Assembly: GCA_045535075.1 (NCBI GenBank)
Contig: JAZSKX010000002.1
Span: 27,216-91,215, forward strand
DNA: 64,000 bases
Direction of reading: 5' to 3'
Source of the DNA: Candidatus Spyradenecus sp.
GTDB lineage: Bacteria; Verrucomicrobiota; Verrucomicrobiia; Opitutales; UBA953
Positions 6,254 to 30,789 of this stretch are shown here, piece after piece. The notes beneath the pieces were generated by a model. That model searched no databases, was not told where the DNA came from, and was given only the letters and a program-made list of their open reading frames with translations. Positions within the stretch are counted from its first letter, which is position 1. Each line of letters starts with the position of its first letter. Both the position numbers and the translations under genes were made by a program.

Positions 6254-6288
6254 CACACGTATTATGAATTAATAATCACTAAAAAAAA

Positions 6289-7011
6289 TTAGCGACGGCG
6301 ACGGCGCGTGCCGACAAGCGCCAAAGCGCCCAAGCCCGCAAGCAAACCGAACGTCGACGGCTCGGGGATAGTAATCGTACTCATCGAAATGCTGTGGACG
6401 GTTTCGTTGATACGATAGTCACCACCAGTATTTCCTCCGAGAGCAATATCCGTGATATTTCCGGTAACCGTATCTGCGAGAGTTCCCGTACCTGTCATTA
6501 CGTCGTCAACGTACAGCGTAACATTCGTGCCGATTTTAACTAAATCAACAGTGTAGATTCCTCCGGCGGCAACATTAACAAGATTGTTTTCGCCCTTGGT
6601 AAGATTTCCGTCAAGAGCGACACTATTTTCCATGTTTGTGTACGGACCGTAGCGCAGCGCAGTTCCGTTTCCCGCAATTGTAGCAAAAACAGGTCAAGCA
6701 TTACTCGCAGAAATAGTATCTCCGAGTGTAAGCGTAACACTGAATTTGAAATCTTCATCCCAACTTCCATAAACACCGCCGGCAAGGTGCGGACGATGGT
6801 TATTAGCTGTGGTCACTCCTCCCTCGTTAACGTAATTTGAGACATCCCAGAACGTCCCCGCACTATTTAACGTTCCCGTGATCTCATAGCCATTAGTGTA
6901 TCCGCTCCCGAAATTTACACTCCAAATTTCGTTCTCGGTATAGTCGACATCCGCACTTGCGACTGCCATTCCCGCGGCGAGAAGAGCCGCAATTGTAATA
7001 TATTTTTTCAT
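6289..7011 (-). pseudogene. PEP-CTERM surface protein interrupted by one in-frame TGA (6694-6696)
   Basis: ORFs 6694-7011 and 6289-6633 are in the same frame: ...SASNA*PVFATIAGNG...MENSV...; N-terminal signal peptide MKKYITIAALL; C-terminal IPEPSTFGLLAGLGALALVGTRRRRR. Confidence 0.8.
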
Positions 7012-7043
7012 GTTTTTTGTGATTGAGATTAAAAGAGGGGTCT

Positions 7044-7071
7044 ATTTTACCCCCCCCCTAAAAGTTATCAA
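7044..7071 (-). promoter_or_regulatory. Putative sigma70 promoter with a G9 tract in the spacer
   Basis: Minus strand TTGATA-acttttaGGGGGGGGG-TAAAAT (16-bp spacer) upstream of the PEP-CTERM start. Confidence 0.6.
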
Positions 7072-7190
7072 GCGGCTTTTTAAGCGCTCTTGGAGGCGGT
7101 TTTATGCGCGGAAAGAGCCGTGAAATCGGCATTCACGAATCTTCTCCGTTGCGGGAACGACCGGCAGAGCGTAGCGTTTTCAAAAGAAAT

Positions 7191-10100
7191 ATGGGCGATA
7201 GCGCGACACAGCAGGCATTTGACATTTTGGACCTTGAGCGCCCCGGCGTCATTGAAGCGTCGGCGGGAACGGGAAAGACATATTCGATTGCCGAAATCTA
7301 TCTTGCCCTGCTCTGCGGGCACACACGCTACGCCCAAAATCCGCCGAAAGATTTTGATTTCGGGAGGAATCCGAATCCGCCTTCCGTGCGGGAAATTCTC
7401 GTCGTTACATTTACGGAAGCGGCAACGAACGAGCTGACCGAACGACTCCAAAAACGAATTCGCGAAGCCGTAAAAAAAGAGCTTTCGCCCGACGCGTCGG
7501 AAAAAGAAAAAAACGAACGCCGTCTGCTTCGCCTCGCCGACGCCGAATTTGACGAAGCGGCCGTTTCGACCATTCACGGATTTTGTATGCGCGTGTTGCG
7601 GGATTTCAGCTTTGAATGCGGCTTGCCGCCGGCGCTCGTTCCCGCAGAAAATCTCACGGAGGAAATGACGCGCTTTGCCGCACGATTCCGCACGCGGGAA
7701 GCGTTGCTCGGGAACAAGCGCATTCTCGAACTTTCGACGAATGACATACGTTCGATTATCGACAAACTTGCTAAAAATCCGGACATCGCAATCGCCGAAC
7801 CGGACAACGGCGACCGCTCAGACCCCGACTTTCACGTCGCGACCCGAGGGCTCAAAGCATGGCTTACCGAACGCAAGAAAATTGAACAACTCTCGTTCGA
7901 CGAAGTACTGCTTCGCTTGCGCGATGCCCTGCGGGAAAAACCGCAACTCGCCCGGAAAATCGCCGCACGCTACCGGGTTGCGCTTGTTGACGAATTTCAG
8001 GACACAGATCCGGTTCAATGGGAAATTTTCAATCTCATTTTCGTCAGACAAAAGCGCCCGTTTTTCTGTGTCGGCGATCCGAAGCAGGCGATTTATGAAT
8101 TTCGCGGCGGAGACATCCGCACGTACACGCAAGCCGTCGGTGAAATCCTTCGAAAGAACCGCGACAATCGCCTTCGCCTAATCACCAACTGGCGCTCCGA
8201 AGCGACAATGATTGCGGCGTTCAACGAGCTTTTCCGCGCCGATTCCCAAATTGAGCCTACAGCCCAAGGCGTTCCCGTAAGCGGCAATCTGAATTACCTT
8301 GATGCCGTTCCCGCGAAGCGGAAAGAGGACTCCGAAAAAAACGCTCCCGCGATTTTTCTTCGAACCGGATTTTCCGGAGCGATTGAGGGAGCTCGCGCGA
8401 AAGTTCGGGAACGACTTGTCGAAGATATTCAAATTTTAATTACGAAACAAAAAATTCCGCCGGAAGCAATTGCCGTGCTTACACGCAAAAACAACGAAGC
8501 ATTTGCAATTTTAAGAGAGCTGACGAAAAAAGGCGTTCCCGCCGTCATGAGCGCGACGGGCTCGGTGCTTGAAACGGAAGAAGCATCTGCGATCGGCGAA
8601 ATTCTCGACGCGATGCTCAATCCGAGCAGCACGTCCGCAATTCTTCGTGCGGCGGTTTGCGAATTTTTCGGTACTTCTTTTTTTGAATCACTCGCACAAA
8701 AAGGAAGCGGAGAAAACGAAGCGCTTTCGAAGTTGCGGGAACGCCTTTTTGAAGCGCAAAAAATCTGGGAGCAGCGCGATGTGCTTTCGGCGTTTTCATT
8801 GCTGGAAAAAACATATTCGTTCCGCGAAAATCTCGCGAAACTTTCCGAGGCTTCCCGACGACTTGCCAACGCGACGCACATTTTGGAAATTCTCCAAACC
8901 GAAGCCCACCAACGCCGCCTCGCGCCGCAAGCTCTTTTCAATCGTTTTTCGGAAATGCTGCGCTCGCCGAATCCCGACTCGGAAAAAGAAGCGCTGCGCA
9001 TTGATTCCGACGCTCCCGCCGTACAAATTACCACGCTCCACAAAAGCAAAGGGCTTCAATACGAAATCGTGTTTCTCCCGAGCTTGTGGGACATGCCGAT
9101 AAGCTCGGGCGGGAGCAAAGTCCGTTGCGTCCGTAGCCAAACACAAAGCGGCGACCGCCAAATACTGCTTCGGAAAAATGCCGCAATTCAACACGCGGAA
9201 ATCGAAGAAACCGCCCAAACGCACGCCTGCCTCAATTACGTCGCGTTTACGCGTGCAAAGAAAGCCTGCGTCGCCTACCACGCGAATGAAGCCACTTCTT
9301 ACGGGAAGAAAATCGAATCCTATTTTTCAAAAATCCTTTCCGCCGCCGGCATCTGCGGGAACGCAACCGGGAACGGCGAAGCGAAGCATTGGAAAATCCT
9401 TGCCGAAGACGACGCGCTCCCGGAAATTTTATTTCTCCGAGAAAAAAAATCGACGGCGCGCAACTCGCCGGACTTTCTGTTCCCGCAAAACAAACCGAAA
9501 AACGGTGCTTGGGGAATTTTCAGCTTTTCAAAAATTATCGACGACCACGAAACGCAAAACGGCAAACTCGAACCGGAAACCGACGACGCCGAAAAAATCA
9601 TCGACGGAACGATTCAAAAATCCGAGCTCTTCCAAGCTCCGGATTATTACGATCTCGCAGCCGGGAAAGAATTCGGGACTCTCGTTCACGCTATTTTCGA
9701 ACAAGTCGATTTTAAAACGCGAAATAATCTCGATGCTCTAATCGAATTTTACAGAGAGCGTTTTCCGCAATGGCTCGCCGACGACGCTTCCCGGGAAAAA
9801 ATCAGAAAAATGATCGACGAAACGCTTGAGCTTCCCATCGACGGCAAGTCCGCCAAACTCAGCCAAATCGATTCGACGCGCGATGCATTACGGGAACTTG
9901 AATTCTTATTCCACGCCAAAAAATCCGAAAATTTGTATTCGGAACTTAATGACGTTTTTTCTTCTTGGGGCGGAATTTACAAACGCACAGCCGAAATTCA
10001 TTGGGCGAGCGGAGACGCGGGAACGCTCAAAATAGAAGGACTGATGCACGGCTATATCGACTTGGTCGCAAGAACAAACGGGCGCTATTACATCGCAGAC

Positions 10101-10385
10101 TGGAAAACCAATCGTGTGATGAAAAAAGACGAAAGAGCCATGTCACGTAAAAATCTTGAAGACGAAATCGCGGAATGCGGCTACGCGCTTCAATGGGCGA
10201 TTTACGCCGTCGCCCTAAGAAAATTCCTGCGAAAAACACTGGGAGACGGCTATTCGACCGAGCGCAATTTCGGCGGAATCGCGTACTTCTTTGTGCGTTG
10301 GAACACGGTTTTCTTTGACAACTCCCTGGACGACGGCAAACTCGACGCGCTCGAAAATATTTTATCGGAAAGGAATTCGCGATGA
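7191..10385 (+). CDS. recB: Exodeoxyribonuclease V beta subunit RecB (UvrD helicase plus nuclease)
   Basis: EASAGTGKT, VTFTEAAT, LVDEFQDTD, GDPKQAIYEFRG, TLHKSKGL, C-terminal GYIDLV...IADWKT; start at ATG 7191. Confidence 0.9.
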   Translation: MGDSATQQAFDILDLERPGVIEASAGTGKTYSIAEIYLALLCGHTRYAQNPPKDFDFGRNPNPPSVREILVVTFTEAATNELTERLQKRIREAVKKELSPDASEKEKNERRLLRLADAEFDEAAVSTIHGFCMRVLRDFSFECGLPPALVPAENLTEEMTRFAARFRTREALLGNKRILELSTNDIRSIIDKLAKNPDIAIAEPDNGDRSDPDFHVATRGLKAWLTERKKIEQLSFDEVLLRLRDALREKPQLARKIAARYRVALVDEFQDTDPVQWEIFNLIFVRQKRPFFCVGDPKQAIYEFRGGDIRTYTQAVGEILRKNRDNRLRLITNWRSEATMIAAFNELFRADSQIEPTAQGVPVSGNLNYLDAVPAKRKEDSEKNAPAIFLRTGFSGAIEGARAKVRERLVEDIQILITKQKIPPEAIAVLTRKNNEAFAILRELTKKGVPAVMSATGSVLETEEASAIGEILDAMLNPSSTSAILRAAVCEFFGTSFFESLAQKGSGENEALSKLRERLFEAQKIWEQRDVLSAFSLLEKTYSFRENLAKLSEASRRLANATHILEILQTEAHQRRLAPQALFNRFSEMLRSPNPDSEKEALRIDSDAPAVQITTLHKSKGLQYEIVFLPSLWDMPISSGGSKVRCVRSQTQSGDRQILLRKNAAIQHAEIEETAQTHACLNYVAFTRAKKACVAYHANEATSYGKKIESYFSKILSAAGICGNATGNGEAKHWKILAEDDALPEILFLREKKSTARNSPDFLFPQNKPKNGAWGIFSFSKIIDDHETQNGKLEPETDDAEKIIDGTIQKSELFQAPDYYDLAAGKEFGTLVHAIFEQVDFKTRNNLDALIEFYRERFPQWLADDASREKIRKMIDETLELPIDGKSAKLSQIDSTRDALRELEFLFHAKKSENLYSELNDVFSSWGGIYKRTAEIHWASGDAGTLKIEGLMHGYIDLVARTNGRYYIADWKTNRVMKKDERAMSRKNLEDEIAECGYALQWAIYAVALRKFLRKTLGDGYSTERNFGGIAYFFVRWNTVFFDNSLDDGKLDALENILSERNSR

Positions 10386-12112
10386 CTCACCACGGCGACG
10401 GATTTGCCGGCAGCGAAGCACATTGGCTCGGCAGCGAAATTGAACTTCTTTCAAGCGACGCAGGATTTACGCCGAAACAAGCCGCGGAAATGCGCCGACT
10501 GACGGAAGCGCTCGCTAACGCCGTTTTTTCCGAGAAGGAAACATGCCTGCCGATTTCCGCCGCAGAAGACTTGGCGTTTCTCTGCGAATTGAGCAAAAAC
10601 ACAAATCCGATTATCTCCAGCGAGCCGAATGCCCGAACGCCGCTCATCCTAGATATCGAAACCGTAACAAACGCACCGACGCTCTATTTCCGAAAACATT
10701 TCGCTGAAGAATGCTTCATTGCGCGCTCCGTTCGCGCCGCCGCAAATGCCCCGGAAGCTCCGATTTCCCCGCTTCAGGAAAACATCATCGGCGCGGGAAC
10801 GAAAGACGGATTCGGATTCGCGCTCACCGACGAACAAAAAAACGCAGTCCGGGCAATTCTCCGGAGGCAATTCACAATTATTTCCGGCGGACCGGGAACC
10901 GGGAAAACCAGCCTGCTGCTCCGGGCTCTCATCGGAATTCTTGCCGAAAATCCCGAAGCCTCAATCGAAATTGCCGCTCCGACGGGAAAAGCGGCAAACC
11001 GTATCCAAGAATCCATTACAAAACAATTTTCGGAAATCGACGACGGAAAACTGATTGCGACAGCGACAAAAAACGTTCGGGAGAAAATTTCAAAAATCGT
11101 TCCCAAAACGCTTCACCGATTGCTGTCACTTTCTGCGGGAACGACGCGTCCGAAGCCGATTCTCGCCGACGTCGTCATCATCGACGAAGCCTCCATGATT
11201 TCGCAAAACCTGATGGCAACGTTATTAAGCGCCCTTCCCGCGCACGCGAAATTGATTTTGCTCGGCGACAAAAATCAGCTCGACTCCGTCCAACCCGGAC
11301 ACGTTTTCGGCGATTTTTATAACGCTCCCGCGCTATCGCGTTCCCGCGCATCGCTCGTTAAGAGCCATCGATTCAACGACGACAATTTCGTCGGACAACT
11401 CGCCGCCGCCGTCCTCGACGGCAAAAACGAAAAAATCCCGAACCTGCTTTCGCGTGCCCCGGAAAACACGACCGTCGAGTATTGCGACGAGGCAAGCGCG
11501 CGGGAGCAAATCGAGCGCGTACTTCATCTGTGCCTTCCCGCCGAACTGAAAAATCCTTCGCCCGACATCGACCCGAAAACGATTTTGCACGCGCTGGAAA
11601 GTTCCCGCGTACTCACACCGAGCACCGAAGGCGTTTTCGGCGTACATGCTCTCAACGCCGCCGCACAAAAGATCTTTGCGCCGGCATCCCGCGGCGAACA
11701 TTTTCACGGACGCCCGATTCTCGTCACGCAAAACGCGCCGGAATTTTCGCTTAGCAACGGAGACGTCGGACTCATTTTGCGCTCGCCGGAAAACTTCAAC
11801 TTTTATGCGTGGTTTCAGGACGGGAACGGAGAGGCCCGTTCAATTCCAGTCGTGCTTTTGCCCAAACACGAAACCGCCTACGCGATGACGATTCACAAGT
11901 CGCAAGGTTCGGAATTTTCCCGCCTCGGCATTTTCTTTCCGAAAAACACGCGCCCCGGATTCTACACGCGCCAGCTTCTTTACACGGCAATTACACGCTT
12001 TAAGGAAACGCCGCAGAGCAGACTTTGCTTCTGTTGCGATCCCGAATCCGTTGCAAGCGCCGTCAGCTCCGACGCACAATCGCACTCGCTCCTTCCCGCG
12101 CGCCTGAAATAA
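10382..12112 (+). CDS. recD: Exodeoxyribonuclease V alpha subunit RecD
   Basis: SGGPGTGKT, AAPTGKAA, IIDEASM, LGDKNQL, AMTIHKSQGSEF; ATGA overlap with recB. Confidence 0.92.
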   Translation: MTHHGDGFAGSEAHWLGSEIELLSSDAGFTPKQAAEMRRLTEALANAVFSEKETCLPISAAEDLAFLCELSKNTNPIISSEPNARTPLILDIETVTNAPTLYFRKHFAEECFIARSVRAAANAPEAPISPLQENIIGAGTKDGFGFALTDEQKNAVRAILRRQFTIISGGPGTGKTSLLLRALIGILAENPEASIEIAAPTGKAANRIQESITKQFSEIDDGKLIATATKNVREKISKIVPKTLHRLLSLSAGTTRPKPILADVVIIDEASMISQNLMATLLSALPAHAKLILLGDKNQLDSVQPGHVFGDFYNAPALSRSRASLVKSHRFNDDNFVGQLAAAVLDGKNEKIPNLLSRAPENTTVEYCDEASAREQIERVLHLCLPAELKNPSPDIDPKTILHALESSRVLTPSTEGVFGVHALNAAAQKIFAPASRGEHFHGRPILVTQNAPEFSLSNGDVGLILRSPENFNFYAWFQDGNGEARSIPVVLLPKHETAYAMTIHKSQGSEFSRLGIFFPKNTRPGFYTRQLLYTAITRFKETPQSRLCFCCDPESVASAVSSDAQSHSLLPARLK

Positions 12113-12207
12113 TCGTCGTTAAGGCGCGGCCGAAAATTTTCCGCTCCCGGTTAATTCCCTTTCCCGCAAGCTCGTTTTCTGTTTTTATTGTTCTTTTACT
12201 TTTTCAA

Positions 12208-14085
12208 ATGGACAAGAAAAACACAATTATTGGAGCATTGCTGATTGCAACGGCAATCGGACTTATGTTCTGGGATGCCCGAAACCGTTCGGAAATGCCG
12301 CCCCCGGCGCCGAAACCGGCAATCGCGCAAACACAAAACGTTTCGCCCGCTCCCGTCGTAACACAAACACCGAATGCAACCGCCGTTCCCGTAGTCAAAG
12401 CGCCGCAGGAGCCGGAAAAAATCTTTTCGCTCGAAAATTCGACGCTCAAGCTCAATATCAGCTCACACAACGGCGCGTTGAAAACCGTCGAACTGAAAAC
12501 GCAACCGACCTCGCTCGAAGACAGCGCTCCGGTCGTTTTCAACGAAGGGTCTCCCGTTCCCGCGCTCCGCATGGCATCGCCGTCCGGCGTTCGCGGCGTC
12601 GAACCGATTCCGTTTGACGTAAATTTCGTTGTTGAATCTTCGACGGAAGACAGTGCTAAGCAAACGCGCACGCTAACGCTTCTCGGCAAAAAGGACGGGC
12701 TGGAAATTCGCCGTATTTACACGCTCTCGCTCGATGAAAAAGGCGAAGGCCTTCGCGACCCGTATTTGGTTAACCACGATATCAAAATCAAACGCGTCTC
12801 CGGCGAAGCAAAGGCGTTCCCGCTCCTGCTCTCGACAGGCATGCTTCCGCCGACGGAAGGCGATCGCGCCAACATTTTCCTGAATGCTTCGTGGTACAAC
12901 GGAGATGATTACGAAAAATGCCCGCCGAGCGAATTTAAAGACTCGTCCGGATTTCTCGGGCTCGGGGCGCATCGGGCGCTTCCGGACTTCGAAGCCACGG
13001 TCGGGCACGCGGACCCGTTAAGCTTTGTTGCCGTAACCAATCAATATTTCGCCGGAGTTATCGGATTTGCGGAAAGCACGCGCCCGATCGCCTCTCGCGT
13101 TTTTGTGTTCCCGCAAAAACTTCCGCCTGCAGAACAGATTAACGACATTACGCTAACGACGCAGGCTTACGCGCAACTTGACGTTCCCGCGCTCAATATC
13201 GGGCAAACCGCCAATATCGCCCTGCACTACTTTGTCGGGCCGAAAGAATATACGCGCCTCGCCGAACTCAACGACACGATTGACGGCATCGACAATGTTG
13301 TCCAATTCACAAGCCTTTTCGGCATTATCTCAGTTGATTGGCTGTGCAAGATTCTGGTCGTCGTGATGAACGCAATTCACAATCTTCTGCCGACAAGCGC
13401 ATGGGCTTGGGGCTGGTCGATTTTGGTGATGACGCTGATTGTCAAGGGCATCACGTGGCCGCTGACGATGGCGCAACAGCGCTCTGCAAAGAAGATGCAG
13501 CAGTTCAGCGAACCGATGAAGCAGATTCGCGAAAAATACAAAGACAACCCGCAGAAAATGCAGCAGGAAATGATGAAGTTGTATCGCGACAACAAAATCA
13601 ATCCGCTCGCGGGCTGTTTCCCGGTTTTGATTCAAATTCCGATTTTCTTCGGGATGTACTGCGCGTTCCAAACCTGCGCGGAGCTACGCCTGCAAGGATT
13701 CCTTTGGATTTCCGATCTTTCCATGCCGGACCTGATTCCGGGCATGGAGGATGCAACCATCCCGCTCATCGGCGCGCAAATCCACCTGCTCCCGATTCTC
13801 ATGGGTGCAACCATGCTCGCTAATATGGCGATGACGCCGATGCCGAACGCTCAGCCCGGGCAGAAAAATATGTTCTACATCATGATGGCGATTATTCCTG
13901 TCATTTGTTACACAATGCCCTCGGCGCTAACGCTCTACTGGACGATGCAAAACATCCTGACCATCTTCCAAACTTGGTTGGTACGCCGTTCCCGCGACAA
14001 GGATTCCTCGGGAACAACGGGCGGCGTTGAAATCATTCCGCCGACCAAGAAAAAAGGACGCGGAAAAGGTCTTCCCGTTCGCTAA
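12208..14085 (+). CDS. yidC: Membrane protein insertase YidC
   Basis: MDKKN N-terminal TM, WGWSI, MMKLYRDNKINPLAGCFPVLIQIP, FLWISDLS, LTLYW; start at ATG 12208. Confidence 0.95.
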   Translation: MDKKNTIIGALLIATAIGLMFWDARNRSEMPPPAPKPAIAQTQNVSPAPVVTQTPNATAVPVVKAPQEPEKIFSLENSTLKLNISSHNGALKTVELKTQPTSLEDSAPVVFNEGSPVPALRMASPSGVRGVEPIPFDVNFVVESSTEDSAKQTRTLTLLGKKDGLEIRRIYTLSLDEKGEGLRDPYLVNHDIKIKRVSGEAKAFPLLLSTGMLPPTEGDRANIFLNASWYNGDDYEKCPPSEFKDSSGFLGLGAHRALPDFEATVGHADPLSFVAVTNQYFAGVIGFAESTRPIASRVFVFPQKLPPAEQINDITLTTQAYAQLDVPALNIGQTANIALHYFVGPKEYTRLAELNDTIDGIDNVVQFTSLFGIISVDWLCKILVVVMNAIHNLLPTSAWAWGWSILVMTLIVKGITWPLTMAQQRSAKKMQQFSEPMKQIREKYKDNPQKMQQEMMKLYRDNKINPLAGCFPVLIQIPIFFGMYCAFQTCAELRLQGFLWISDLSMPDLIPGMEDATIPLIGAQIHLLPILMGATMLANMAMTPMPNAQPGQKNMFYIMMAIIPVICYTMPSALTLYWTMQNILTIFQTWLVRRSRDKDSSGTTGGVEIIPPTKKKGRGKGLPVR

Positions 14086-14100
14086 AGGCATCACTCGACA

Positions 14101-14132
14101 AAAAAATCCCTCCGAAACCGGAGGGATTTTTT
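14101..14132. terminator. Bidirectional terminator between yidC and the efflux operon
   Basis: AAAAAATCCCTCCG-AAAC-CGGAGGGATTTTTT. Confidence 0.85.
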
Positions 14133-14174
14133 ATCGGAAAGCAAACGCTGAAATTAAGCAGAGGACGCGATTTC

Positions 14175-15554
14175 TCAGCTTTCCGGATCCATTGCAATCA
14201 GATACGCGATTGCGGCAATGGCTTCGCGGTAATCGTATTCAGCCGTAACGGAAGCCGCTCTCGCCTCCGTCAACGAAACCTGCGCGTCCGTTCGGTCGAG
14301 AGCCGAAGCCTTCCCGACGCGGAATTGCTCGGTTACGATATCGAAATTTTCTTTTGACGCGCGCTCGGAGAGTTGCGCAACTTCGCGTTGCTTTTTTGCA
14401 CGCGTGAGGTTGAGCGCCGCCGTGCAAATTTTCGCATAAAGTTCCTGCTCGTAAGCAGCGACACGGCTTCGGGCAATCCGTAATTGCGCAACGGCGTTTT
14501 CAATCGCCCGGACATTTTTTCCGCCGTCGAAAACGTTCTGAGCAATCTTTGCCGTGCCGATAAGATTCCAGATTTTCGGCATATCCAAGTCGTCGCCTTC
14601 GAGTGATGCCGTAAAATTCAGGCCGAGCGACGGATACAAGTCCGCGATCGTTTTGTCGACATAAGCCGACGCCGCCTTCTCACGTGCAATCAATTCTGCA
14701 AGCCCGGGCTCGCGTTCCCGCGCAATCGTCATAAGCACTTCGACATCGCCGACAAAAGTCCCCATGACGTTCCCGCCGATTTCATAATTCGGGGATTCCG
14801 CAAAACCAAGCGCAAGATTCAATTCCGCACGCGCCGTCTTTATGCGGTTCTGCGTATTAATACTCTGGAGGACTGCGTTGTTATAGTCGACTTCCGCTTT
14901 CGTGCAATCGTATTTCGTCCCTTTTTGCGCCTCATATTTTGCGAGCATTTGCGTAAGATGCTCCTTGTATTGGGCAACCGATTGCTCGGCAACGACATTT
15001 AACTCGGTACTTCGGCGAAGCTCAAAATAAGCTTTTCTTACGTTGTAACGCACAAGATTTTCCGCCGAAAGCAGAGCTTTTTCCGCCGAAAGCAATTCGG
15101 CAAGCGCCTTTTGGAAGCGCGCGTCCGTTTTCCCGAAGTCCCAAAGCAACAATTCAAGCGATAAACCGACTTTGCTTCCGCCGTCGCTGTGGAAACTCTG
15201 CCCGTGCGAAGAATTATTATGGGTTCCGCGCGAATATGATGCCGTTGCATCAATCTTCGGCTCGTAATCCGATCGCACGTCCTTCACGGCGAGTTCCGCC
15301 GCAATAACGGCTTGGCGGGCCTGAAAGACCTTCGGATTCGCGTCGAGCGCGATTCCTTCGAAGTCGCTAAGAGACAGCGCGATTCCCGCCGGGAATCCGT
15401 ATTCGGAGAAAGAAACGGTGCGTTCGCCGCGCAAACGATTCGCCGCGTCTTGTGCTTCCCGCGCCTCCTCTACCGTCGAGCACGCCGTTCCCGCGAGCAA
15501 CGTTCCCGCCGCCAGCATCAGCCAAAAATTTTTTACTCTAAACTCAGTTTTCAT
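14175..15554 (-). CDS. TolC-family outer membrane efflux lipoprotein
   Basis: Lipobox-like LAGTAC, two OEP-type halves (LWDFGK; YPSL...FDGG); last gene of the RND operon; start at ATG 15554. Confidence 0.85.
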   Translation of the reverse strand: MKTEFRVKNFWLMLAAGTLLAGTACSTVEEAREAQDAANRLRGERTVSFSEYGFPAGIALSLSDFEGIALDANPKVFQARQAVIAAELAVKDVRSDYEPKIDATASYSRGTHNNSSHGQSFHSDGGSKVGLSLELLLWDFGKTDARFQKALAELLSAEKALLSAENLVRYNVRKAYFELRRSTELNVVAEQSVAQYKEHLTQMLAKYEAQKGTKYDCTKAEVDYNNAVLQSINTQNRIKTARAELNLALGFAESPNYEIGGNVMGTFVGDVEVLMTIAREREPGLAELIAREKAASAYVDKTIADLYPSLGLNFTASLEGDDLDMPKIWNLIGTAKIAQNVFDGGKNVRAIENAVAQLRIARSRVAAYEQELYAKICTAALNLTRAKKQREVAQLSERASKENFDIVTEQFRVGKASALDRTDAQVSLTEARAASVTAEYDYREAIAAIAYLIAMDPES

Positions 15555-20742: not shown

Positions 20743-20979
20743 GCCGGAAACCCTATTTAAAATACACGCGAGAGCCAATAATTTTCCCGTAAAAAAATCC
20801 GAACAAAAAATCGCGGCTTGCTCGCTTAATAGATGTTTTGAGTGTTAATGAGAATAGGTTAAGTTAGAGAGAGTTGGCGGGCGTTCCTCAGCAGGAACGC
20901 CCGTTTTTTCTCCATCGAACTCATTCATTTGCTTTTTCCTTACGGGAACACTAAGCTTGCGCGCTTTAAATTTCGTATC

Positions 20980-22262: not shown

Positions 22263-22291
22263 ACGCGTTCCCGCCGAAACATTTTTCGCTT

Positions 22292-22657: not shown

Positions 22658-22663
22658 TGCGCC

Positions 22664-23167
22664 TTAGCCGATAACTTCTTCTTCGACGCGCACGGGAACG
22701 CCGGAGCCGCATTGTGCGCGATAAGCAAGAAACGTTCCCGCAGCAGCATGTTTGTCAAAAACGGGCCAGACAAGCACGCGATCCGTCGGCGGAATTGCAA
22801 GCGTTTCGATTTCTTCCCGCGAAAAAAATGCAAATTGTCCTTCGTCAATTTCCGGCGGGAGCGCCTCAAGCGGCTTGCGTGCATCGAAAAGAAACATCAG
22901 CCAATGCCCGCTTCCCTCGTAGCTGCGTTCGGAAACCATCCCGAAAAGATGCAAATCGTTTTGCGTCAGCTTGATGCCGGTTTCTTCCCGCGCTTCGCGA
23001 ATTGCACATTCAAACGGCGATTCGCCGACAGCCATTTCAAGCTTGCCGCCGACAGGACTCCAACAGCCTTTATTCGGCGCTTTTTTTCGCTGAATCATCA
23101 GAAATTTTCCGTCCTTGTCTTTAATAAAAATCAGCACGGAAATCTTAAACGGCAAAGTCGTATTCAT
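22664..23167 (-). CDS. NUDIX hydrolase
   Basis: Nudix box GGKLEMAVGESPFECAIREAREETG. Confidence 0.9.
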   Translation of the reverse strand: MNTTLPFKISVLIFIKDKDGKFLMIQRKKAPNKGCWSPVGGKLEMAVGESPFECAIREAREETGIKLTQNDLHLFGMVSERSYEGSGHWLMFLFDARKPLEALPPEIDEGQFAFFSREEIETLAIPPTDRVLVWPVFDKHAAAGTFLAYRAQCGSGVPVRVEEEVIG

Positions 23168-23187
23168 TTTTCAAATACAAAGTTTAA

Positions 23188-24483
23188 TCACCAAACGATT
23201 GCCCAAAGCGCTTTCAGATAGCGACCTTCCGGATAATTCGACATCACGGGGTGATCCAAGCCCGGTCCCGTACGATCCAAAATCTGCAGGCGACGCCCAA
23301 GCCGATGCGCCACGCGCACAATCAGCGCTTCAAAGTCTTCAACTTTCAGCAAGCCGGAGCAGGAATTCGTCACAAACAAACCGCCTTCCTTCACGAGCGG
23401 AAGCACGACTTTGTTCATATCGTGATATTTCGCGTAGCCGTCTTCGTAATCTTCGCGTCCGTTGATGAGCTTCGGCGGATCGAGCACGACGACATCAAAA
23501 CGCTCGCCGTTTGCCTGCATTTGGCGTGCATACGTAAACGTATCGGAATGAACAAAATTGATACGCGTCTGATTCAGATTCGCATTGCGTTTTGCCTGCG
23601 CAACGGCGTTTTCGTCCAAATCGACACCGGTTACTTCCGCCGCGTTCCCGAGCACTTTTGCCGCAATCGAAAATCCGCCCGTGTAGCAACACAAATCCAA
23701 GACGCGCTTTCCCGCACAAAGCGCCGCAAGTTTTTTGCGGTTGTCGCGCTGGTCGCAGAAAAATCCCGTCTTGTGTCCGTTTTCAAAATCCACCGCAAAG
23801 CGCAAACCGTTTTCGCGAATTTTGACTTCCCGCAAACCCGGCGTATGCGTTTCTTCGCAGGCACGCGCGTTTTCCATACTCCCGAAGCCTTTGACGAGCT
23901 GAATCGTCTCGCGCGTCGTTCCGAGCGCCTCGTGAAAAATCGGAATCCAATCTTTAATGCGCTGATAAACGGGAAGCGAAAAAATTTCGACACTCAGAGT
24001 GTCGCCGTATTTATCGACCACCAAGCCGTTCAGCCCGTCGGCATCGCCATGCACGACGCGAAACGCGTCCGTCGCCTCCGGCAAGTGCAAAGTTTCCGTA
24101 CGCAAGCGACACGCGCGACGAATCAGCGTTTCAAAATAGTCCGCAGGAAGCGGTTCTTTGGCGTGAGAAAAAATCCGAAGCGGAATATTCGCTCCCGCGT
24201 TGTAAAAACCGTGCCCGAAGGGATTCCCTTCCTTGTCGTAAACAGTAACCTGCGCGCCGGCTTCAATTCCGCCGGAAGTCGCCCCGACAAAGCGCGGGAA
24301 CACATTCGGCGAAAACGTAAAATATTTCAGCTGAACCCAAGGCTTTTGCCACGCATCACTTCCGGGCGGGAGCGGTTTTTCCGCGCCGAAGCGGCGTTCC
24401 CGCGAAAATTCTCCGCGCCGAAAATTCCCGCGCGAAACAAAATCTTTTTTGGAAAAATGCGAATTGGAAGCGTTCCCGTTCAT
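23188..24483 (-). CDS. RlmI-family SAM-dependent rRNA methyltransferase
   Basis: GDADGLNGLVVDKY, GHKTGFFCDQRDNR, VLDLCCYTGGFS, VVLDPPK, GLDHP..PEGRYLK. Confidence 0.88.
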   Translation of the reverse strand: MNGNASNSHFSKKDFVSRGNFRRGEFSRERRFGAEKPLPPGSDAWQKPWVQLKYFTFSPNVFPRFVGATSGGIEAGAQVTVYDKEGNPFGHGFYNAGANIPLRIFSHAKEPLPADYFETLIRRACRLRTETLHLPEATDAFRVVHGDADGLNGLVVDKYGDTLSVEIFSLPVYQRIKDWIPIFHEALGTTRETIQLVKGFGSMENARACEETHTPGLREVKIRENGLRFAVDFENGHKTGFFCDQRDNRKKLAALCAGKRVLDLCCYTGGFSIAAKVLGNAAEVTGVDLDENAVAQAKRNANLNQTRINFVHSDTFTYARQMQANGERFDVVVLDPPKLINGREDYEDGYAKYHDMNKVVLPLVKEGGLFVTNSCSGLLKVEDFEALIVRVAHRLGRRLQILDRTGPGLDHPVMSNYPEGRYLKALWAIVW

Positions 24484-24548
24484 GAGCGTAAACGCTATCC
24501 GTTCCCGCCGAAACTTTCAAAGATTTTCGAGGCTCTGTTCCTGAAAAT

Positions 24549-24582
24549 AAAAAAACACCGGCATCAGAACTCCGGTGTTTTT
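24549..24582 (-). terminator. Terminator after argH
   Basis: AAAAAACACCGG...CCGGTGTTTTTT. Confidence 0.7.
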
Positions 24583-24588
24583 TCGAAA

Positions 24589-26022
24589 CTACGCCAAGCG
24601 TTTGCGCCAGTCGAGAATCTGCTTTTTCACTTGCTTCGGACCGGGCATGCCGACGCGTTCCCGCGACGCCATCGCCGTTTTTAAATCAAAAACCTTCACC
24701 CAATCTTCTCCCAGTTTCGGGTGCACTTTTTTCACTTTTTCAAACGGGAGCGCATTCAGCGGAACGCCTTCCTTTTCGGCAAGCGCAACCAAATGCCCGA
24801 CAACGTGATGCGCCTCGCGGAACGGCACGCCCGCACGCACGAGATAATCCGCCACGTCCGTCGCGAGCAAAAGCGGATCGGCAACCGCCGCCGCGCAACG
24901 CTCCGCGCGCATCGCCGCTCCCGCGAGCGTTTCGCGCAGCACATCGAGCGAAATCATCACCGTATCAAAAGAATCAAATACGGGCGGTTTGTCTTCCTGC
25001 AAATCGCGATTGTAAGTCAGCGGCAAGCCTTTAACCATCGTAACGAGCGCGACCAAATTGCCATGCAAGCGCGCGGATTTCCCGCGAAGCAGTTCGAGCG
25101 AGTCCGGGTTTTTCTTCTGCGGCATCAGCGACGAACCCGTCGTAAACGTGTCGGGAAGCGCAACGAAACCGAACTCCGAGGAATTCCACAAAATCAAATC
25201 TTCCGCGATGCGCGAAAAATGCACGCCGCAAAGCGCACACGCCGACGCAAATTCGATAAACGTGTCGCGGTCGGAAACGGCATCCATGCTGTTGCGCGTT
25301 ACGCGCGCGTTCCCGCGGTCGTCGACAAAATCCATGGCGACGGCGGAAAATTCGCGATCGATCGGAAGCGTCGTTCCCGCGATCGCGCCCGAGCCGAGCG
25401 GCGACCAGTTCGCGTGGTCAAACACGGCGGCGAAACGCTCGCGGTCGCGCGAAAACATTTCGACATAGGCGAGCAAATGATGCGCGACAGAAACCGGCTG
25501 GGCGCGTTGCAGGTGCGTGAACCCGGGAATGTAAACGTCCTGATTACGCGCGGCAACATCGAGAAGCGTGTTCATCAGCGCACCGAGTTTTTCAAAAATT
25601 TTCGCGCTCGCGTCTTTGAAAAACAGACGCATATCGGTCGCGACCTGATCGTTGCGGGAACGCGCCGTGTGCAGTTTCGCGGCGGCGGGAACGCACTTCG
25701 TCAGCGCCTGTTCGATGTTCATGTGCACGTCTTCAAGTGCGATGTTCCACTCGAATTTTCCGGCTTCGATTTCTTTCAAAATCGCGTCGAGCCCGCGCAC
25801 GATGTCGTTGCATTCTTTCTTGGAAATAATCCCGACGTGGGCGAGCATTTTCGCCTGAGCCTTGCTTCCCGCGACGTCAAACGGTGCGAGCCGCGCATCA
25901 AACGAAACGCTTTCGCTGAACTTGAGCATCAGCTCTGCGGGACCTTGCGAAAAGCGTCCGCCCCAAGTTGCCTGCTCTTTGCGAGCCGCCGTTTTTTTCG
26001 TCGTCGAAGTTTTCTTTGCCAT
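24589..26022 (-). CDS. argH: Argininosuccinate lyase
   Basis: [50 protein letters not shown]. Confidence 0.97.
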
Positions 26023-26416
26023 GGCGGGAAAGCTTAAAGATTAAAGCTCAATCCTTAAAGATTAAAGAGAGCAACCGCACCGCTTCCACGCATCGAACAT
26101 CAAGCGAAACCCGACAGTAAAACCTCCGAAAATCAACAGCTTAAAAAGTCGAACAATAATAACCGCAGGTAGCGCGAGTTACCTGCGGAACAAACGCGCA
26201 ACCGCAATGCGCTTGAAAAGCGCAACAACTCCGGGACGTTTTACGAAAGTGAAAGTCTCCCGACCTTCGCCCCAAAAGCGTTTCGATTTTCCCCCAAAAA
26301 AAGCTCTCGCAAAGAACGCTGCGGATTGCAGAAATTTTTTGCTCTGCGAAACCTTGCAAACTCTGCGAGAGAATTTATCCCCGAACGAATAAAGTGCTTC
26401 TCTTTCGGAATTTTAA

Positions 26417-27877
26417 TTACAACCCTGCGGGAACGCGGCAGGAGAAATCGTGCGCGGTCTCGAATGCGTGAGCGGCGGCGAGTACGTTCCCGTCGTCGAG
26501 GGCTTTCCCGATGAGCTGAAGCCCGATCGGCATGCCGGCGGCATCGAAGCCGCAGGGAAGCGAAACGGCGGGAAGCCCGGTCAGATTCGCGGGAACGGTG
26601 CAAATATCGCCGAGATACATTTTGAGCGGGTCGGAGGTTTTTCCGCCCTGCGGGAACGCGGTTTCCGGCGTCGTCGGCGCAAGAATCAGGTCGACATCGG
26701 CAAAGGCTTTTTCAAATTCGTTGCGGATGAGCGAGCGGATTTTTTGCGCGCGCAGGTAATATGCGTCGTAGTAGCCGGCGGAAAGCACGTAGGTGCCGAG
26801 CAAGATGCGGCGTTTGACTTCTTCGCCGAAGCCTTCGCCGCGGCTTTTTGCAAAAATGTCGATCGCGTCGGTCGCGCGCGCACTGCGATGCGTGTAGCGA
26901 ATGCCGTCGAAGCGCGCGAGGTTGGACGAGGCTTCCGCCGTTGCGATAATGTAATAAGCCGGAATCGCGAGATTAATCGACGGGAGTGAAATTTCGCGAA
27001 TTTCGCAACCTTGAGATTCATACCACGCCGCGGCTTTTTTTACGGCTTCGTCGATGGCGGAATCGCCGCCGAAAAATTCTTTCGGTAAACCGATTTTGCG
27101 CGGTTTCGCGGGAACGGAAAGTTGCGGGAACGTCGGCGTGCGCGCGCCCGGAAGCGCAGTGGAATCGTGCGCGCAAGGCGAGGCGAGCACGTCGTAAAGC
27201 GCAGCGGCGTCGGCAACACTACGCGCCATCGGTCCGACTTGTTCGAGCGAGGACGCAAACGCCACCGCGCCGTAGCGGGAAACGGTTCCGTAAGTCGGTT
27301 TGAAGCCGACAATACCGCAAAAACTCGCCGGCTGGCGGATCGACCCACCCGTGTCCGAGCCGAGCGCGAGCGGCGTCATTCCCGCCGCTACCGCCGCCGC
27401 CGAGCCGCCGGACGAACCGCCGGGAACGCAATCGGTGTTCCACGGATTGGCGGTTTTCGCGAAAGCGGAATTTTCCGTCGAGGAGCCCATCGCGAATTCG
27501 TCCATGTTGAGACGACCGAAAATGACGGCGCCGGATTTTTTCAAATTGGAAATGACGGTCGCATCGTAGGGCGAAACAAAGTTTTCGAGCATTTTCGACG
27601 CGCAGGAACATTTTTGCCCGGCAACGGCGATATTGTCTTTGATGGCGACGGGAACGCCGTCGAGCGCGCCGAGTGTCGTTCCCGCAGCGCGGCGTGCGTC
27701 GGCGGCGTCGGCTTGCGCGAGCGCGTCGGCTTCGTCCACGGAAAGAAACGCGCGAATTTTTCCGTCCGTTGCGCGAATGCGGTCGAGTTGCGCCTGCATG
27801 AGTTCCCGCGCGGAGATTTTTTTCTCCGCAAGGAGCGTTGCAAGTTCGGTTGCCGTTTTAAAATTTAAAGAATCCAT
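26417..27877 (-). CDS. gatA: Asp/Glu-tRNA amidotransferase subunit A
   Basis: NMDEFAMGSSTE, PGGSSGGSAAAVA, GSDTGGSIRQPA, SSNLARFDG, EVKRRILLG. Confidence 0.97.
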   Translation of the reverse strand: MDSLNFKTATELATLLAEKKISARELMQAQLDRIRATDGKIRAFLSVDEADALAQADAADARRAAGTTLGALDGVPVAIKDNIAVAGQKCSCASKMLENFVSPYDATVISNLKKSGAVIFGRLNMDEFAMGSSTENSAFAKTANPWNTDCVPGGSSGGSAAAVAAGMTPLALGSDTGGSIRQPASFCGIVGFKPTYGTVSRYGAVAFASSLEQVGPMARSVADAAALYDVLASPCAHDSTALPGARTPTFPQLSVPAKPRKIGLPKEFFGGDSAIDEAVKKAAAWYESQGCEIREISLPSINLAIPAYYIIATAEASSNLARFDGIRYTHRSARATDAIDIFAKSRGEGFGEEVKRRILLGTYVLSAGYYDAYYLRAQKIRSLIRNEFEKAFADVDLILAPTTPETAFPQGGKTSDPLKMYLGDICTVPANLTGLPAVSLPCGFDAAGMPIGLQLIGKALDDGNVLAAAHAFETAHDFSCRVPAGL

Positions 27878-27886
27878 AAAAAAAGA

Positions 27887-27942
27887 TGATAGATGAGAGC
27901 TGAGGGCTTAGAGGTGCGAGCTGAGGGCTTAGAGGTAAATGC
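27887..27942. repeat. Degenerate 7-bp tandem array (left flank of the four-helix-bundle gene)
   Basis: TGATAGA TGAGAGC TGAGGGC TTAGAGG TGCGAGC TGAGGGC TTAGAGG TAAATGC. Confidence 0.75.
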
Positions 27943-27943
27943 G

Positions 27944-28339
27944 TTAAAAGGTTTTGGAATTTTCGTTTTGTTCGGTTTGGCGGCGATGCCGAGAAAGCCC
28001 GCTGAGGGATTTGGCGATGCTGAGAATGAGGTTTTTCGCCTCGCTTAATTCCATTTCGGAAATGTAGTCGAGTTCCCGCGCGATTTTTATTTGGCAAAAA
28101 ACTTCCATCAACGAACCGTAGGCGATTTCGAAAAAGCGGAGTTGGTCTTTGGCGGAAAATCGTCCGTTCCCTTCTGCGATGTTTGAAGGAACGGAAACAA
28201 CTGCGCGCCGAAGTTGAGCGGAAAGCGCAAATTGCTCGTGCTCCGGAAATTTTGTCAAAAGACCGTAAACGAGCTTTACGAGGCGCATGGAATCTTGCCA
28301 CGCATAGAGTTTTTCGAATGAAAAAACCACTTCTTCCAT
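27944..28339 (-). CDS. Four helix bundle protein (23S rRNA IVS protein family)
   Basis: FEKLYAWQ..., FPEHEQFALSAQLRRAVVSVPSNIAEG, F.EIAYGSLMEV. Confidence 0.92.
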   Translation of the reverse strand: MEEVVFSFEKLYAWQDSMRLVKLVYGLLTKFPEHEQFALSAQLRRAVVSVPSNIAEGNGRFSAKDQLRFFEIAYGSLMEVFCQIKIARELDYISEMELSEAKNLILSIAKSLSGLSRHRRQTEQNENSKTF

Positions 28340-28349
28340 TTTACTAAAA

Positions 28350-28387
28350 GCAAATACCTCTCAGCTCTCAGCCATTGCCTCTCAGCG
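28350..28387. repeat. Degenerate 7-bp array inverted relative to 27887-27942
   Basis: GCAAATA CCTCTCA GCTCTCA GCCATTG CCTCTCA. Confidence 0.7.
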
Positions 28388-28405
28388 CGAAAACTTTGTT
28401 TTCGC

Positions 28406-28702
28406 TTATTCGCCGTCGTCGACGACGCGGGGGACGACGATTTGGTCTTCGCGTGCGGCAGGAGCGTTTTTCAGAAGAGCTTCGACGGGAAGTGTTTCCG
28501 CGGGAACGTCGTCGCGCAAAACATTGTAAACCGGGAACGCGTGCGCGCAGGGCTCAAGCGCGGAGACATCGACAGCGTTGAGTTTTTCGAAAAATCCGAG
28601 AATGGTTTGAAAGTCTCCGGCGAATTTTTGTTTTTCGGTATCGGAAAGTTCGATACGTGCGAGCGCGGAAACGTGTGCGAGATCGATTTGCGAATCGTTC
28701 AT
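28406..28702 (-). CDS. gatC: Asp/Glu-tRNA amidotransferase subunit C
   Basis: HVSALARIEL, NVLRDD, LLKNAP, VVPRVV; upstream of gatA. Confidence 0.93.
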   Translation of the reverse strand: MNDSQIDLAHVSALARIELSDTEKQKFAGDFQTILGFFEKLNAVDVSALEPCAHAFPVYNVLRDDVPAETLPVEALLKNAPAAREDQIVVPRVVDDGE

Positions 28703-28710
28703 AAAGCGTG

Positions 28711-29775
28711 TTATTTAATTTTAAATACGAGTTTCACGTAAAATGTGGAATCGAAGTGGCGATTGCCGACGGCGACGATGCTGTTGTAAGCATTGGTCAT
28801 TCCGATGCGAATGCCGACTTTATCTTCATAATAAGCGGTTTCGAAGTAGGATTCGTGGGAGATAACGTAATCGCCGCTCGGATCGTCAAATGAAGGACCG
28901 TAATTGACTTTATTTACGATCTTTCCGAAATCCGCCGAGTAGTAATGGTTGATTTCAAAGTCGCCCGTCGGCGTGCTGACATCTTCGATTCCGGCGTCTT
29001 CTTCGTAGCTTTCGTAGCGAAAACCCGCCCCGCAACGTACGTTCAATTTCCAATTCTCGCGGTCGATAACGCCATAGCCGAGCCCGAGCGCGGAAGTCGT
29101 GAAAAAGTTCTGCTTGGCAATTTTGTCGTAGCCGTTGTCGGTACGCCCGTACCATTGAAGCGGCGCATAAAATTTGTCTTCGTAGTCGGCGATAAGGTGA
29201 AGATTGTCCTGCGATTTGTCTCCGTTGGTTTCGCTGTAATTAAAATTTGCACACAAATGAAGCTTATCGAACTCGCCGATATTGTAGGCATTCATCCCGA
29301 AAAGCGCCTGAGCGAAATCCGTCGTCCCGGACGTTCCCGTAAAGCCGGCTTCAATCGTAAACGTCCAGTGGCGGTCTTTTTTTTGAAGCGCACGCTCGGC
29401 GGGGCTTAAATCGCCATGGCGCCACAGGTCGGCGACTTCGTCCGTTCCCGCCGCCGCAATCCCGTGAAGCGAGCTGATGCTGATCGTGTTTCCGAAGCCG
29501 GGAACGACGGTTCCGTGAAACGTCGCTCCGGAATTCGTCGTCATGAAAATCGCTTCGTCCGTCGAAAAATTTTCGACCTTTGCCATGTCGATTTTAAACT
29601 CGCTCTGCGCAAAATCAGGAACGACGATAAGCGTGCCGCCGGAAATGCTTTTGATCTTCCCGCGAATGAGCGAACCGTCGTCCAGCCGCACTTCGTCGGC
29701 ATGGGCCGCGAAGGCTCCGGCACAAAACGCAAGCGCAACAAAAAGCTTCGAAGTTTTCGAGAAAAAGACGGACAT
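28711..29775 (-). CDS. DUF481-like outer membrane beta-barrel protein
   Basis: Signal peptide; N-terminal DEVRLDDGSLIRGKI domain followed by alternating aromatic beta strands. Confidence 0.65.
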   Translation of the reverse strand: MSVFFSKTSKLFVALAFCAGAFAAHADEVRLDDGSLIRGKIKSISGGTLIVVPDFAQSEFKIDMAKVENFSTDEAIFMTTNSGATFHGTVVPGFGNTISISSLHGIAAAGTDEVADLWRHGDLSPAERALQKKDRHWTFTIEAGFTGTSGTTDFAQALFGMNAYNIGEFDKLHLCANFNYSETNGDKSQDNLHLIADYEDKFYAPLQWYGRTDNGYDKIAKQNFFTTSALGLGYGVIDRENWKLNVRCGAGFRYESYEEDAGIEDVSTPTGDFEINHYYSADFGKIVNKVNYGPSFDDPSGDYVISHESYFETAYYEDKVGIRIGMTNAYNSIVAVGNRHFDSTFYVKLVFKIK

Positions 29776-29857
29776 AAATTTCCCCTCAGTCTAATCGCAG
29801 TCGCTCAACACCTTCAAATATTAAAAACAACAAAACCGCGAACAAGCCGACAAAAAA

Positions 29858-29887
29858 ACGTTCCCGCAGACTGCTCCGCGGGAACGT
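29858..29887 (-). terminator. Terminator formed by an inverted CGGGAACG pair, downstream of PEP-CTERM gene 2
   Basis: ACGTTCCCGC-N10-GCGGGAACGT preceded by an A-run. Confidence 0.75.
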
Positions 29888-29924
29888 CGGACTAATTATG
29901 AATTAATATATCACTAAAGAAAGA

Positions 29925-30659
29925 TTAGCGACGGCGGCGACGCGAACCGACAAGCGCCAAAGCGCCCAAGCCCGCGAGCAAACCGAACGCAGACGGCTCG
30001 GGAATCGGAGCGGTCGTAGCAGCGAGGCTCGACAGATCCTTCATGTTGGTTTCATTTCCGCCCATATATTCGTTGAAATAATAGGACGTTGCGACAGAAT
30101 CGTTGAAAGTAAGTGCGGAAATACCGGCCTGGTTTGTCTTCAAGCCTCCGGCAGCAACATACGAATTCACAATTGCATTTTTGCTAGCATCCAAAAGCGT
30201 AAATGCAACGGCTGTGCCGGAAGTCGAACCAAACGAATAAACCAATCCGGCGTAAGCGACATTGTCCCAACCGGTTCCTTCCGTGTCCCCGTTAAGATCT
30301 GCGAGATCGGAACTGCCTGTCCAACAGGTGCTACTCCAATTGATATTGTCTCCCCAGCGAGCATACAATCCGGAAGTATTAACTTTTCCACCGGAAGATC
30401 CCCCGTTAACCGTAACGCCGGTAGCAGTCCCTCCGGCATCGTAGCGAACAATATCTGTTCCCCAGCTAGCGGTTACCCCTTTTTCCAGAAGCGCGCGGAG
30501 CTCCGCGACATCAAGCGTCAAAGCGACGGTAAAGCTTCCTCCGAGCGTATTGTAGCTGGTATCTCCCCCGACAGCCTTATCCGCACCGTCCAGCGAGACT
30601 GCATTTGCGAAAGCGGCGCCTGCGGCGAAAAGAGCCGCGAGTGTAATATATTTTTTCAT
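29925..30659 (-). CDS. PEP-CTERM surface protein
   Basis: Signal peptide MKKYITLAALF; C-terminal IPEPSAFGLLAGLGALALVGSRRRRR. Confidence 0.93.
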   Translation of the reverse strand: MKKYITLAALFAAGAAFANAVSLDGADKAVGGDTSYNTLGGSFTVALTLDVAELRALLEKGVTASWGTDIVRYDAGGTATGVTVNGGSSGGKVNTSGLYARWGDNINWSSTCWTGSSDLADLNGDTEGTGWDNVAYAGLVYSFGSTSGTAVAFTLLDASKNAIVNSYVAAGGLKTNQAGISALTFNDSVATSYYFNEYMGGNETNMKDLSSLAATTAPIPEPSAFGLLAGLGALALVGSRRRRR

Positions 30660-30692
30660 AAGTTTCGTGATTGAGATTAAAATGAGGGGTTC

Positions 30693-30720
30693 ATTTTACC
30701 CCCCCCTAAAATGGCGTCAA
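30693..30720 (-). promoter_or_regulatory. Putative sigma70 promoter with a G8 tract in the spacer
   Basis: Minus strand TTGACG-ccattttaGGGGGGGG-TAAAAT (16-bp spacer); homologous to 7044-7071. Confidence 0.6.
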
Positions 30721-30789
30721 GTGCATTTGAAGCGATTTTAGGGGTAATTTTGAAGCAGCACGACGCACTGTAATTTCCGGATACGAAAA

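Follow-up and report, generated by a model that had tools for sequence, protein, structure and literature searches.

Gene A and gene B are two small genes that end in PEP-CTERM sorting signals within 64,000 nt of Candidatus Spyradenecus sp. DNA (contig JAZSKX010000002.1; this whole stretch is the window, and coordinates are window positions). Both probably belong to a numerous, lineage-specific group of PEP-CTERM proteins of ~240 aa that are sorted by exosortase in a gut Verrucomicrobiota bacterium (Opitutae-like). In this group, stable families of central domains, the payloads, would be carried in a shared, constrained module that was occasionally exchanged or converted. Gene A occupies 6289-7011 (-) and gene B 29925-30659 (-), and alignments were made on the coding (minus) strand. 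The layout of the two genes is the usual build of the PEP-CTERM class and not a working shuffling system or variation engine.

In the proposed organization, a sigma-70-type promoter (TTGAYN, a 16-nt spacer with G8/G9, TAAAAT) would be followed by a leader, a Sec signal peptide and a ~190-aa beta-sandwich of the ConA/LamG type, and then by the PEP motif with its membrane helix and Arg cluster, a short 3′ untranslated region (UTR) and an intrinsic terminator apparently built from the hyper-abundant CGGGAACG word of the genome. The ends would be alike because all these genes rely on one promoter type, one export route and one sorting enzyme, and because the end modules descend from common DNA. 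Their similarity was probably maintained, over evolutionary time, by occasional conversion between genes or exchange of modules. The middles would be separate, stably inherited families, with gene A now apparently knocked out by a nonsense change.

Shared ends and separate middles

Every part of the common frame that the original prediction had described, namely the promoter, leader, MKKYIT start, sorting-signal DNA, 3′ UTR and terminator, was recovered in place. Between genes A and B, 48 of 61 positions are identical from the -35 hexamer to the ATG (79%), all 18 in the first six codons, 31/45 across what remains of the signal peptide, 71/78 between the PEP motif and the end of the stop codon (91%) and 55/73 across the 3′ UTR and terminator (75%). 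The payloads reach 39%, the background of a forced global alignment, and the outer flanks 26-39%. The longest exact identity runs between the loci measure 29, 18, 17 and 16 nt, and the flank blocks, at 111 nt and 89 nt (families D1 and D4), belong with the longest direct repeats that the window contains. Within the window, exact copies of the leader 16-mer and of the G-tract/-10 block occur only at A and B, with 0.67 and 0.04 chance matches expected, respectively (<=3 mismatches). The leader measures ~26-33 nt, the distance from the -10 hexamer to the ATG being ~33 nt, and has no Shine-Dalgarno-like run, and neither leader matched Rfam. Downstream of both stop codons, a conserved AT-rich block precedes a terminator hairpin with the arms CGTTCCCG and CGGGAACG.

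At the protein level, both N-termini consist of MKKYIT, a hydrophobic run and A-x-A, read by eye as a putative signal peptide and kept in homologues. Pfam PEP-CTERM (PF07589) scored 25.0 bits for A and 21.6 for B (cut-off 20.7), and NCBIfam TIGR02595 scored 20.6 and 16.9 bits (cut-off 16). The motif runs up to the stop codon, and A and B are the only PEP-CTERM open reading frames (ORFs) of the window. Against the named NCBIfam PEP-CTERM subfamilies (FxDxF, NF038129 and others), both proteins stayed below the cut-off, with a best score of 25.6 versus 50 bits. Both are single-gene units between unrelated genes, each with its own promoter-like site and terminator; the claim of solitary insertions held to that extent only.

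Both payloads have stable families of their own, each with dozens of full-length homologues at 45-77% identity in related gut MAGs. Family A yielded 43 full-length-type matches (E 9e-101 to 4e-45, 44-75% identity) and family B ~90 matches at E<=1e-40 (43-76% identity), nearly all from gut metagenomes and MAGs (metagenome-assembled genomes). BLASTP aligned only the C-terminal 45 residues of A and B, and profile-profile comparison of the trimmed middles gave a probability of 0.6%. Homology of A and B through full-length profiles (99.5% probability) was rejected, since that score is carried by the ends, and transitive homology linking the payloads was likewise rejected, as they fall into separate phmmer components. 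At one related locus (L007, 9055-11654), three tandem family-B paralogues with 87-91% identical payload DNA lie together with a fourth, diverged copy on the opposite strand, and these copies appear to be a local expansion of one payload family.

The notion of unrelated payloads stood for sequence and gave way for fold, since both AlphaFold models are beta-sandwiches of the ConA-like kind, predicted with confidence (pLDDT 83.6 for A and 83.5 for B). Model A matches 296 PDB chains at E<=1e-3 (E from 8.7e-6, TMq up to 0.51); these are lectin-like jelly-roll domains, namely those of trans-sialidases, a GH43 accessory domain and, in clostridial neurotoxin binding domains, the generic jelly-roll half. 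Model B matches the PilC lectin module, pentraxins, CBM40 and legume lectins (E from 9.1e-5, TMq ~0.35). Laminin_G_3 (PF13385) matched 4/17 family-A members weakly (best E 0.0013) and 0/26 in family B. Judging from the models, the two middles probably belong to one broad ConA/LamG-like fold class despite their unrelated sequences, and the payloads are probably glycan-binding surface proteins.

Both genes are members of the PEP-CTERM class; B is intact, and A carries an in-frame TGA at codon 106 (6694-6696, -). This position is Trp in 17/17 rows of the family alignment (gene A and 16 homologues), so gene A is regarded as broken; the TGA is the only interruption of its frame. Sense decoding of TGA was rejected: the codon terminates 10/34 long ORFs of the window and is thus a normal stop here. 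On the sequence, the TGA would be a nonsense change, or else an assembly or population variant.

Breadth of the family and its two sets of ends

In a full HMMER pass, B was compared with 1.84 billion representatives of 50%-identity clusters and matched 328 at E<=1e-3, 30 at <=1e-10 and 7 at <=1e-30; with so few matches at the stricter thresholds, most of these relatives share little beyond the ends. The middles of 361 retrieved proteins form 54 phmmer components, so that at least 54 payload families carry the ends, and the 118 proteins new from this pass have a median length of 240 aa. The existence of a dispersed family with conserved ends and unrelated middles was thus borne out on a wide scale.

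The ends are of two types. Type 1 combines MKKYIT..AALLAAG..FANA with PEPS.FGLLAGLGALALVG.RRRR, and type 2 combines MKKTLI..AMA with PEPTTATLSLLALAGLAARRRR. They covary strictly among 239 proteins (124 N1-C1, 67 N2-C2 and no mixed cases, with 48 unclassified, mostly through alternative start calls), and no mixed ends occur among the 118 further proteins either. Both types are found on payload families A and B. In the nine DNA sources, type 1 occurs in the window and in L001, a locus from a MAG named Ca. Spyradenecus that holds the gene B orthologue, and type 2 occurs in seven MAGs named Akkermansia sp.; none holds both. A search of public DNA for related loci with a narrowed family-B alignment returned 8 loci, with 1-4 PEP-CTERM genes per 5-20 kb. 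None of the flanking ORFs of these 8 loci matched those of the window (no synteny), and a scan of public genome contigs with the 23-nt leader gave 0 loci.

The upstream DNA of type 2 genes is wholly unlike that of type 1. At locus L004, 128 nt of upstream DNA (82-84% identity), the signal peptide and the tail are common to three PEP-CTERM genes that differ in payload; the genes lie within 6 kb, with the upstream blocks at 9881-10008, 12365-12492 and 15089-15216. Type-2 loci of several MAGs have in common a promoter-like TTGCTA..TACTAT and a ~100-nt leader with a conserved CAT-GCGC-AGGRA element. Rfam gave only sub-threshold chance matches in L004, and the CAT-GCGC-AGGRA element was in no family.

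The closest named proteins of the window's ArgH are from Puniceicoccales and Opitutales (70-75% identity), from which the organism looks like an Opitutae-type member of the Verrucomicrobiota, in contrast to the placement of Ca. Spyradenecus in Lentisphaerota by NCBI. Public protein sets also contain ArgH relatives at 97% and 90% identity.

Much of this build is familiar. In Haft et al. 2006 (PMC1569441), PEP-CTERM proteins are described as numerous per genome, diverse outside the tail and equipped with signal peptides; their genes are mostly single-gene operons with large upstream regions, sharing a sigma-54 element in Proteobacteria, and the tail forms species-specific clades. Likewise, A. 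muciniphila has 21-23 PEP-CTERM genes scattered across its genome (PMC3048395 and PMC4960237). Genes A and B resemble these exosortase (EpsH, Xrt) substrates in the PEP motif, helix and basic cluster, the putative signal peptide, the single-gene operons and the shared upstream DNA, and also in belonging to many diverse paralogues per genome that are homologous only in the tail (PMC1569441). The upstream element described for Proteobacteria is a sigma-54 site with PrsR/PrsK/PrsT, whereas A and B have a sigma-70-like promoter with a poly-G spacer; moreover, DNA conservation in A and B reaches into the leader, the DNA of the signal peptide and a block of the 3′ UTR. Shared upstream DNA and single-gene operons were already reported in 2006 (PMC1569441); A and B depart from that picture in promoter type, in the G tract and in how far conservation reaches at the DNA level. 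For now, the finding is mainly another description, from a new lineage, of how PEP-CTERM gene families are known to be built. Such proteins are common in gut Verrucomicrobia and little understood, and the two lineage-specific sets of ends make a natural experiment in the co-evolution of sorting signals, signal peptides and promoters with the exosortase machinery.

Constraint, exchange and switching

Degenerate codons encoding the same residue were compared, with the expectation taken from window codon usage in 20000 simulations. In the ends of A and B, 10/38 synonymous codons differ versus 23.9 expected, and 0/20000 simulations gave a value that low. Between B and its orthologue at L001, 22/44 end codons and 75/124 payload codons of this kind differ. 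A and B, but not the L001 orthologue, have the distal leader and the 3′ UTR block in common. The excess codon identity hints at past gene conversion or nucleotide-level constraint, both of which fit it. Strong purifying selection on the promoter, signal peptide and sorting signal as the sole cause, with no recombination ever among members, is unlikely. It accounts for type-1 protein ends that are ~87% identical whatever the genome, for a core promoter conserved across species and for end variants that track orthology, but it fails to cover the synonymous sites, non-core leader and 3′ UTR held in common by A and B and not by the B orthologue, the occurrence of both end types, with their different upstream DNA, on both payload families, or the upstream block shared by the three payload genes of L004.

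The original prediction saw in the conserved ends the recombination handles of an active surface-variation system, in which payloads would be traded between loci or with imported DNA and the displayed domain would often change. Real flank homology and the excess synonymous identity speak for such a system, and so does a genome saturated with an uptake-sequence-like 8-mer and encoding DprA, a mediator of transformation-associated recombination. The payload tree of family A implies 5 changes of end type, at least 3 of which well-supported branches require; however, a single origin of type 2 was not rejected by the approximately unbiased test (p 0.06), which leaves multiple switches in family A suggestive only, and supported branches force just 1 end-type change in the family-B tree, which yielded no supported signal of switching. 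One mosaic protein also favours exchange: the metagenome protein P0133 (family A) resembles type-1 relatives in its N-part and tail, and its central 45 residues are 90-93% identical to a type-2 relative and 37-40% to type-1 ones. It may be a product of recombination or an assembly chimera; mosaics of this kind come from metagenome assemblies, where chimeras are possible.

Against a variation system stand the small number of copies, two in 64 kb, both with promoters and start codons, the conserved nature of the payload families, exact identity runs of at most 29 nt, and end variants that follow orthology; the ends of gene B are identical to those of its homologues P0004 and P0011. Repeat, motif and ORF scans found no promoterless or partial donor copies in the window, and there is no silent-donor/expression-site layout because A and B each carry a full promoter, start codon and terminator. 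In neisserial pilE/pilS and Borrelia vlsE, a single expression site is accompanied by many silent cassettes that lack promoters and all belong to one homologous family. Genes A and B are like these systems in having conserved flanks around a variable middle in a host-associated organism, and unlike them in that each copy is complete and the middles come from unrelated families. An active system is accordingly judged very unlikely: the idea that the ends permit gene conversion keeps its past form, and no operating domain swapping was found.

The favoured reading, that stable payload families lie in a constrained module with occasional exchange or conversion, has several points to contend with. 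The excess codon identity may stem from mRNA selection or genome-specific mutation bias, and L001 is the sole outgroup locus for the codon comparison. Ends of different genes are no more alike on the same contig (0.864, n=10 pairs) than on different contigs (0.866, n=126) across eight contig groups, and the same-contig similarity was reached in 2782/5000 shuffles; within-genome homogenisation of protein ends was therefore not seen, which argues against frequent homogenisation. A Pfam scan found no exosortase among the 42 window ORFs, so the exosortase partner of A and B is assumed. The promoter and terminator calls are consensus matches, and lectin function is a guess, given the weak fold matches (TM 0.35-0.51).

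A separate matter, compatible with the favoured reading, is the G tract in the -35/-10 spacer of A, of B and of the L001 orthologue (G9/G8/G9, with spacers of 16/16/17 nt). The core promoter (TTGAC..G-tract..TAAAATGAACCCCTCATTTTAA) is common to all three, and the conserved poly-G tract is the sole fresh lead, toward possible phase variation. Slipped-strand changes in the length of the G8/G9 tract would alter the -35/-10 spacing and switch or tune each gene independently, giving combinatorial surface variation; this is possible, if somewhat doubtful. The tract has the position and the length (~8 or more) expected of spacer-length phase variation in all three promoters, and the A and B tracts are the only G/C runs >=7 in the 64-kb window (2/2), as is the single one of L001 (1/1). 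In PMC2268961, -35/-10 spacer indels switch the vlp genes of Mycoplasma hyorhinis, but a promoter-adjacent homopolymer without switching is described as well. Moreover, a complementary CCCC(TC) run lies downstream of the G tract and a scan also reads the tract as a hairpin, so it may instead be kept as an operator or structural element, and homopolymer lengths in assemblies are error-prone. Literature searched on PEP-CTERM genes and phase variation together yielded no link between them, and the accessible part of PMC3048395 was without such a link.

In the Vlp family of M. hyorhinis, several single genes keep their 5′ region and signal peptide conserved while their surface domains diverge; they encode lipoproteins of a pathogen that lacks a cell wall, and have a poly-A tract and external domains made of repeats. 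A and B share the conserved 5′ region, a putative signal peptide and the divergent surface domains, and in Vlp spacer indels switch expression (PMC2268961). The differences are poly-A, lipoproteins and demonstrated switching in Vlp as against poly-G, PEP-CTERM anchoring, predicted folded beta-sandwiches and merely possible switching in A and B. A broader proposal is improbable: that a phase-variable poly-G promoter, leader, signal peptide, sorting tail and 3′ UTR form one module driving dozens of unrelated lectin-like PEP-CTERM genes in a gut Verrucomicrobiota clade, with independent slippage producing a combinatorial, reversible surface-lectin repertoire and gene conversion keeping the module uniform per lineage. 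If true, a commensal of the PVC (Planctomycetes-Verrucomicrobia-Chlamydiae) group would follow a strategy like that of Vlp, and if the poly-G promoter is a switch, a phase-variable lectin repertoire would bear on colonisation and on immune or phage evasion.

Parts of the two genes and their surroundings

All parts of gene A lie on the minus strand. The promoter-like site at 7044-7071 (TTGATA, 16-nt spacer with G9, TAAAAT; 10/12 consensus) was aligned with B and L001, and a homopolymer scan places the G9 tract, C9 on the plus strand, at 7050-7058 inside the spacer. By sequence inspection, the leader at 7012-7043 reads AGACCCCTC-TTTTAATCTCAATCAC-AAAAAAC and lacks a Shine-Dalgarno-like run. The coding sequence (6289-7011) has 240 codons plus stop and encodes a family-A PEP-CTERM protein, interrupted by the TGA; it begins with the putative signal peptide MKKYITIAALLAAGMAVASA (6952-7011; by eye and by homologue alignment) and closes with the sorting signal PEPSTFGLLAGLGALALVGTRRRRR and stop (6289-6366; Pfam/NCBIfam profiles). 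The conserved 3′ UTR block follows at 6261-6283 (alignment with gene B), and then the putative intrinsic terminator at 6225-6254, an inverted CGTTCCCG/CGGGAACG pair followed by a T run (consensus match). On one side, gene A is flanked by xseA and an unknown ORF, and on the other by a UvrD/PD-(D/E)XK helicase-nuclease gene (addA-like). The neighbours of A and B have housekeeping or defence roles.

Gene B, also on the minus strand, has its promoter-like site at 30693-30720 (TTGACG, 16-nt spacer with G8, TAAAAT; 10/12 consensus; aligned with A and L001), with the G8 tract, C8 on the plus strand, at 30699-30706 in the spacer (homopolymer scan), and its leader, GAACCCCTCATTTTAATCTCAATCACGAAACTT, at 30660-30692 (sequence inspection). 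The coding sequence (29925-30659) comprises 244 codons plus stop for an intact family-B PEP-CTERM protein, with the putative signal peptide MKKYITLAALFAAGAAFANA at 30600-30659 (by eye and homologue alignment) and the sorting signal at 29925-30002 (Pfam/NCBIfam profiles). The conserved 3′ UTR block is at 29895-29918 (alignment with gene A) and the putative intrinsic terminator at 29857-29888, again an inverted CGTTCCCG/CGGGAACG pair and then a T run (consensus match).

The 8-mer CGGGAACG/CGTTCCCG occurs in 166 copies in 64 kb versus ~5 expected (first-order Markov; maximum 15), with the extended consensus YYG-CGGGAACG-C, and looks like an uptake-sequence-type word from its counts. Seven convergent inverted pairs lie in the window, several followed by T runs as terminators; example sites of the word are 6226-6253, 29859-29886, 30791-30816, 45983-46009 and 54918-54945. 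Its density in L001 is 0.97 per kb (enriched), and in type-2 MAG loci <=0.09 per kb (not enriched). The DprA gene (DNA_processg_A, E 1.6e-77) lies at 53757-54902 in the same window. In Neisseria and Pasteurellaceae, inverted uptake-sequence pairs of a hyper-abundant short word form intrinsic terminators. The putative terminators of A and B are built likewise, with the difference of another word and another phylum. The literature searched on DNA uptake sequences in Verrucomicrobia held nothing apparently relevant.

Gene B lies between gatC-DUF481 on one side and a type I restriction gene on the other. Directly upstream of it, a 45-nt direct repeat (96% identical, at 30927-30971 and 42865-42909), equal to the 3′ end of an aconitase gene, brackets ~11.9 kb with hsdR, hsdS, hsdM, a Hachiman-like pair (HamA and a DEAD helicase) and a Fic protein. 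This stretch resembles a defence island that integrated here and duplicated its target site, and the hsdR frame passes through the left repeat copy in another frame. Between a gatA-like amidase gene and gatC, 27944-28339 encodes a member of the '23S rRNA intervening sequence protein' family (E 8e-34).

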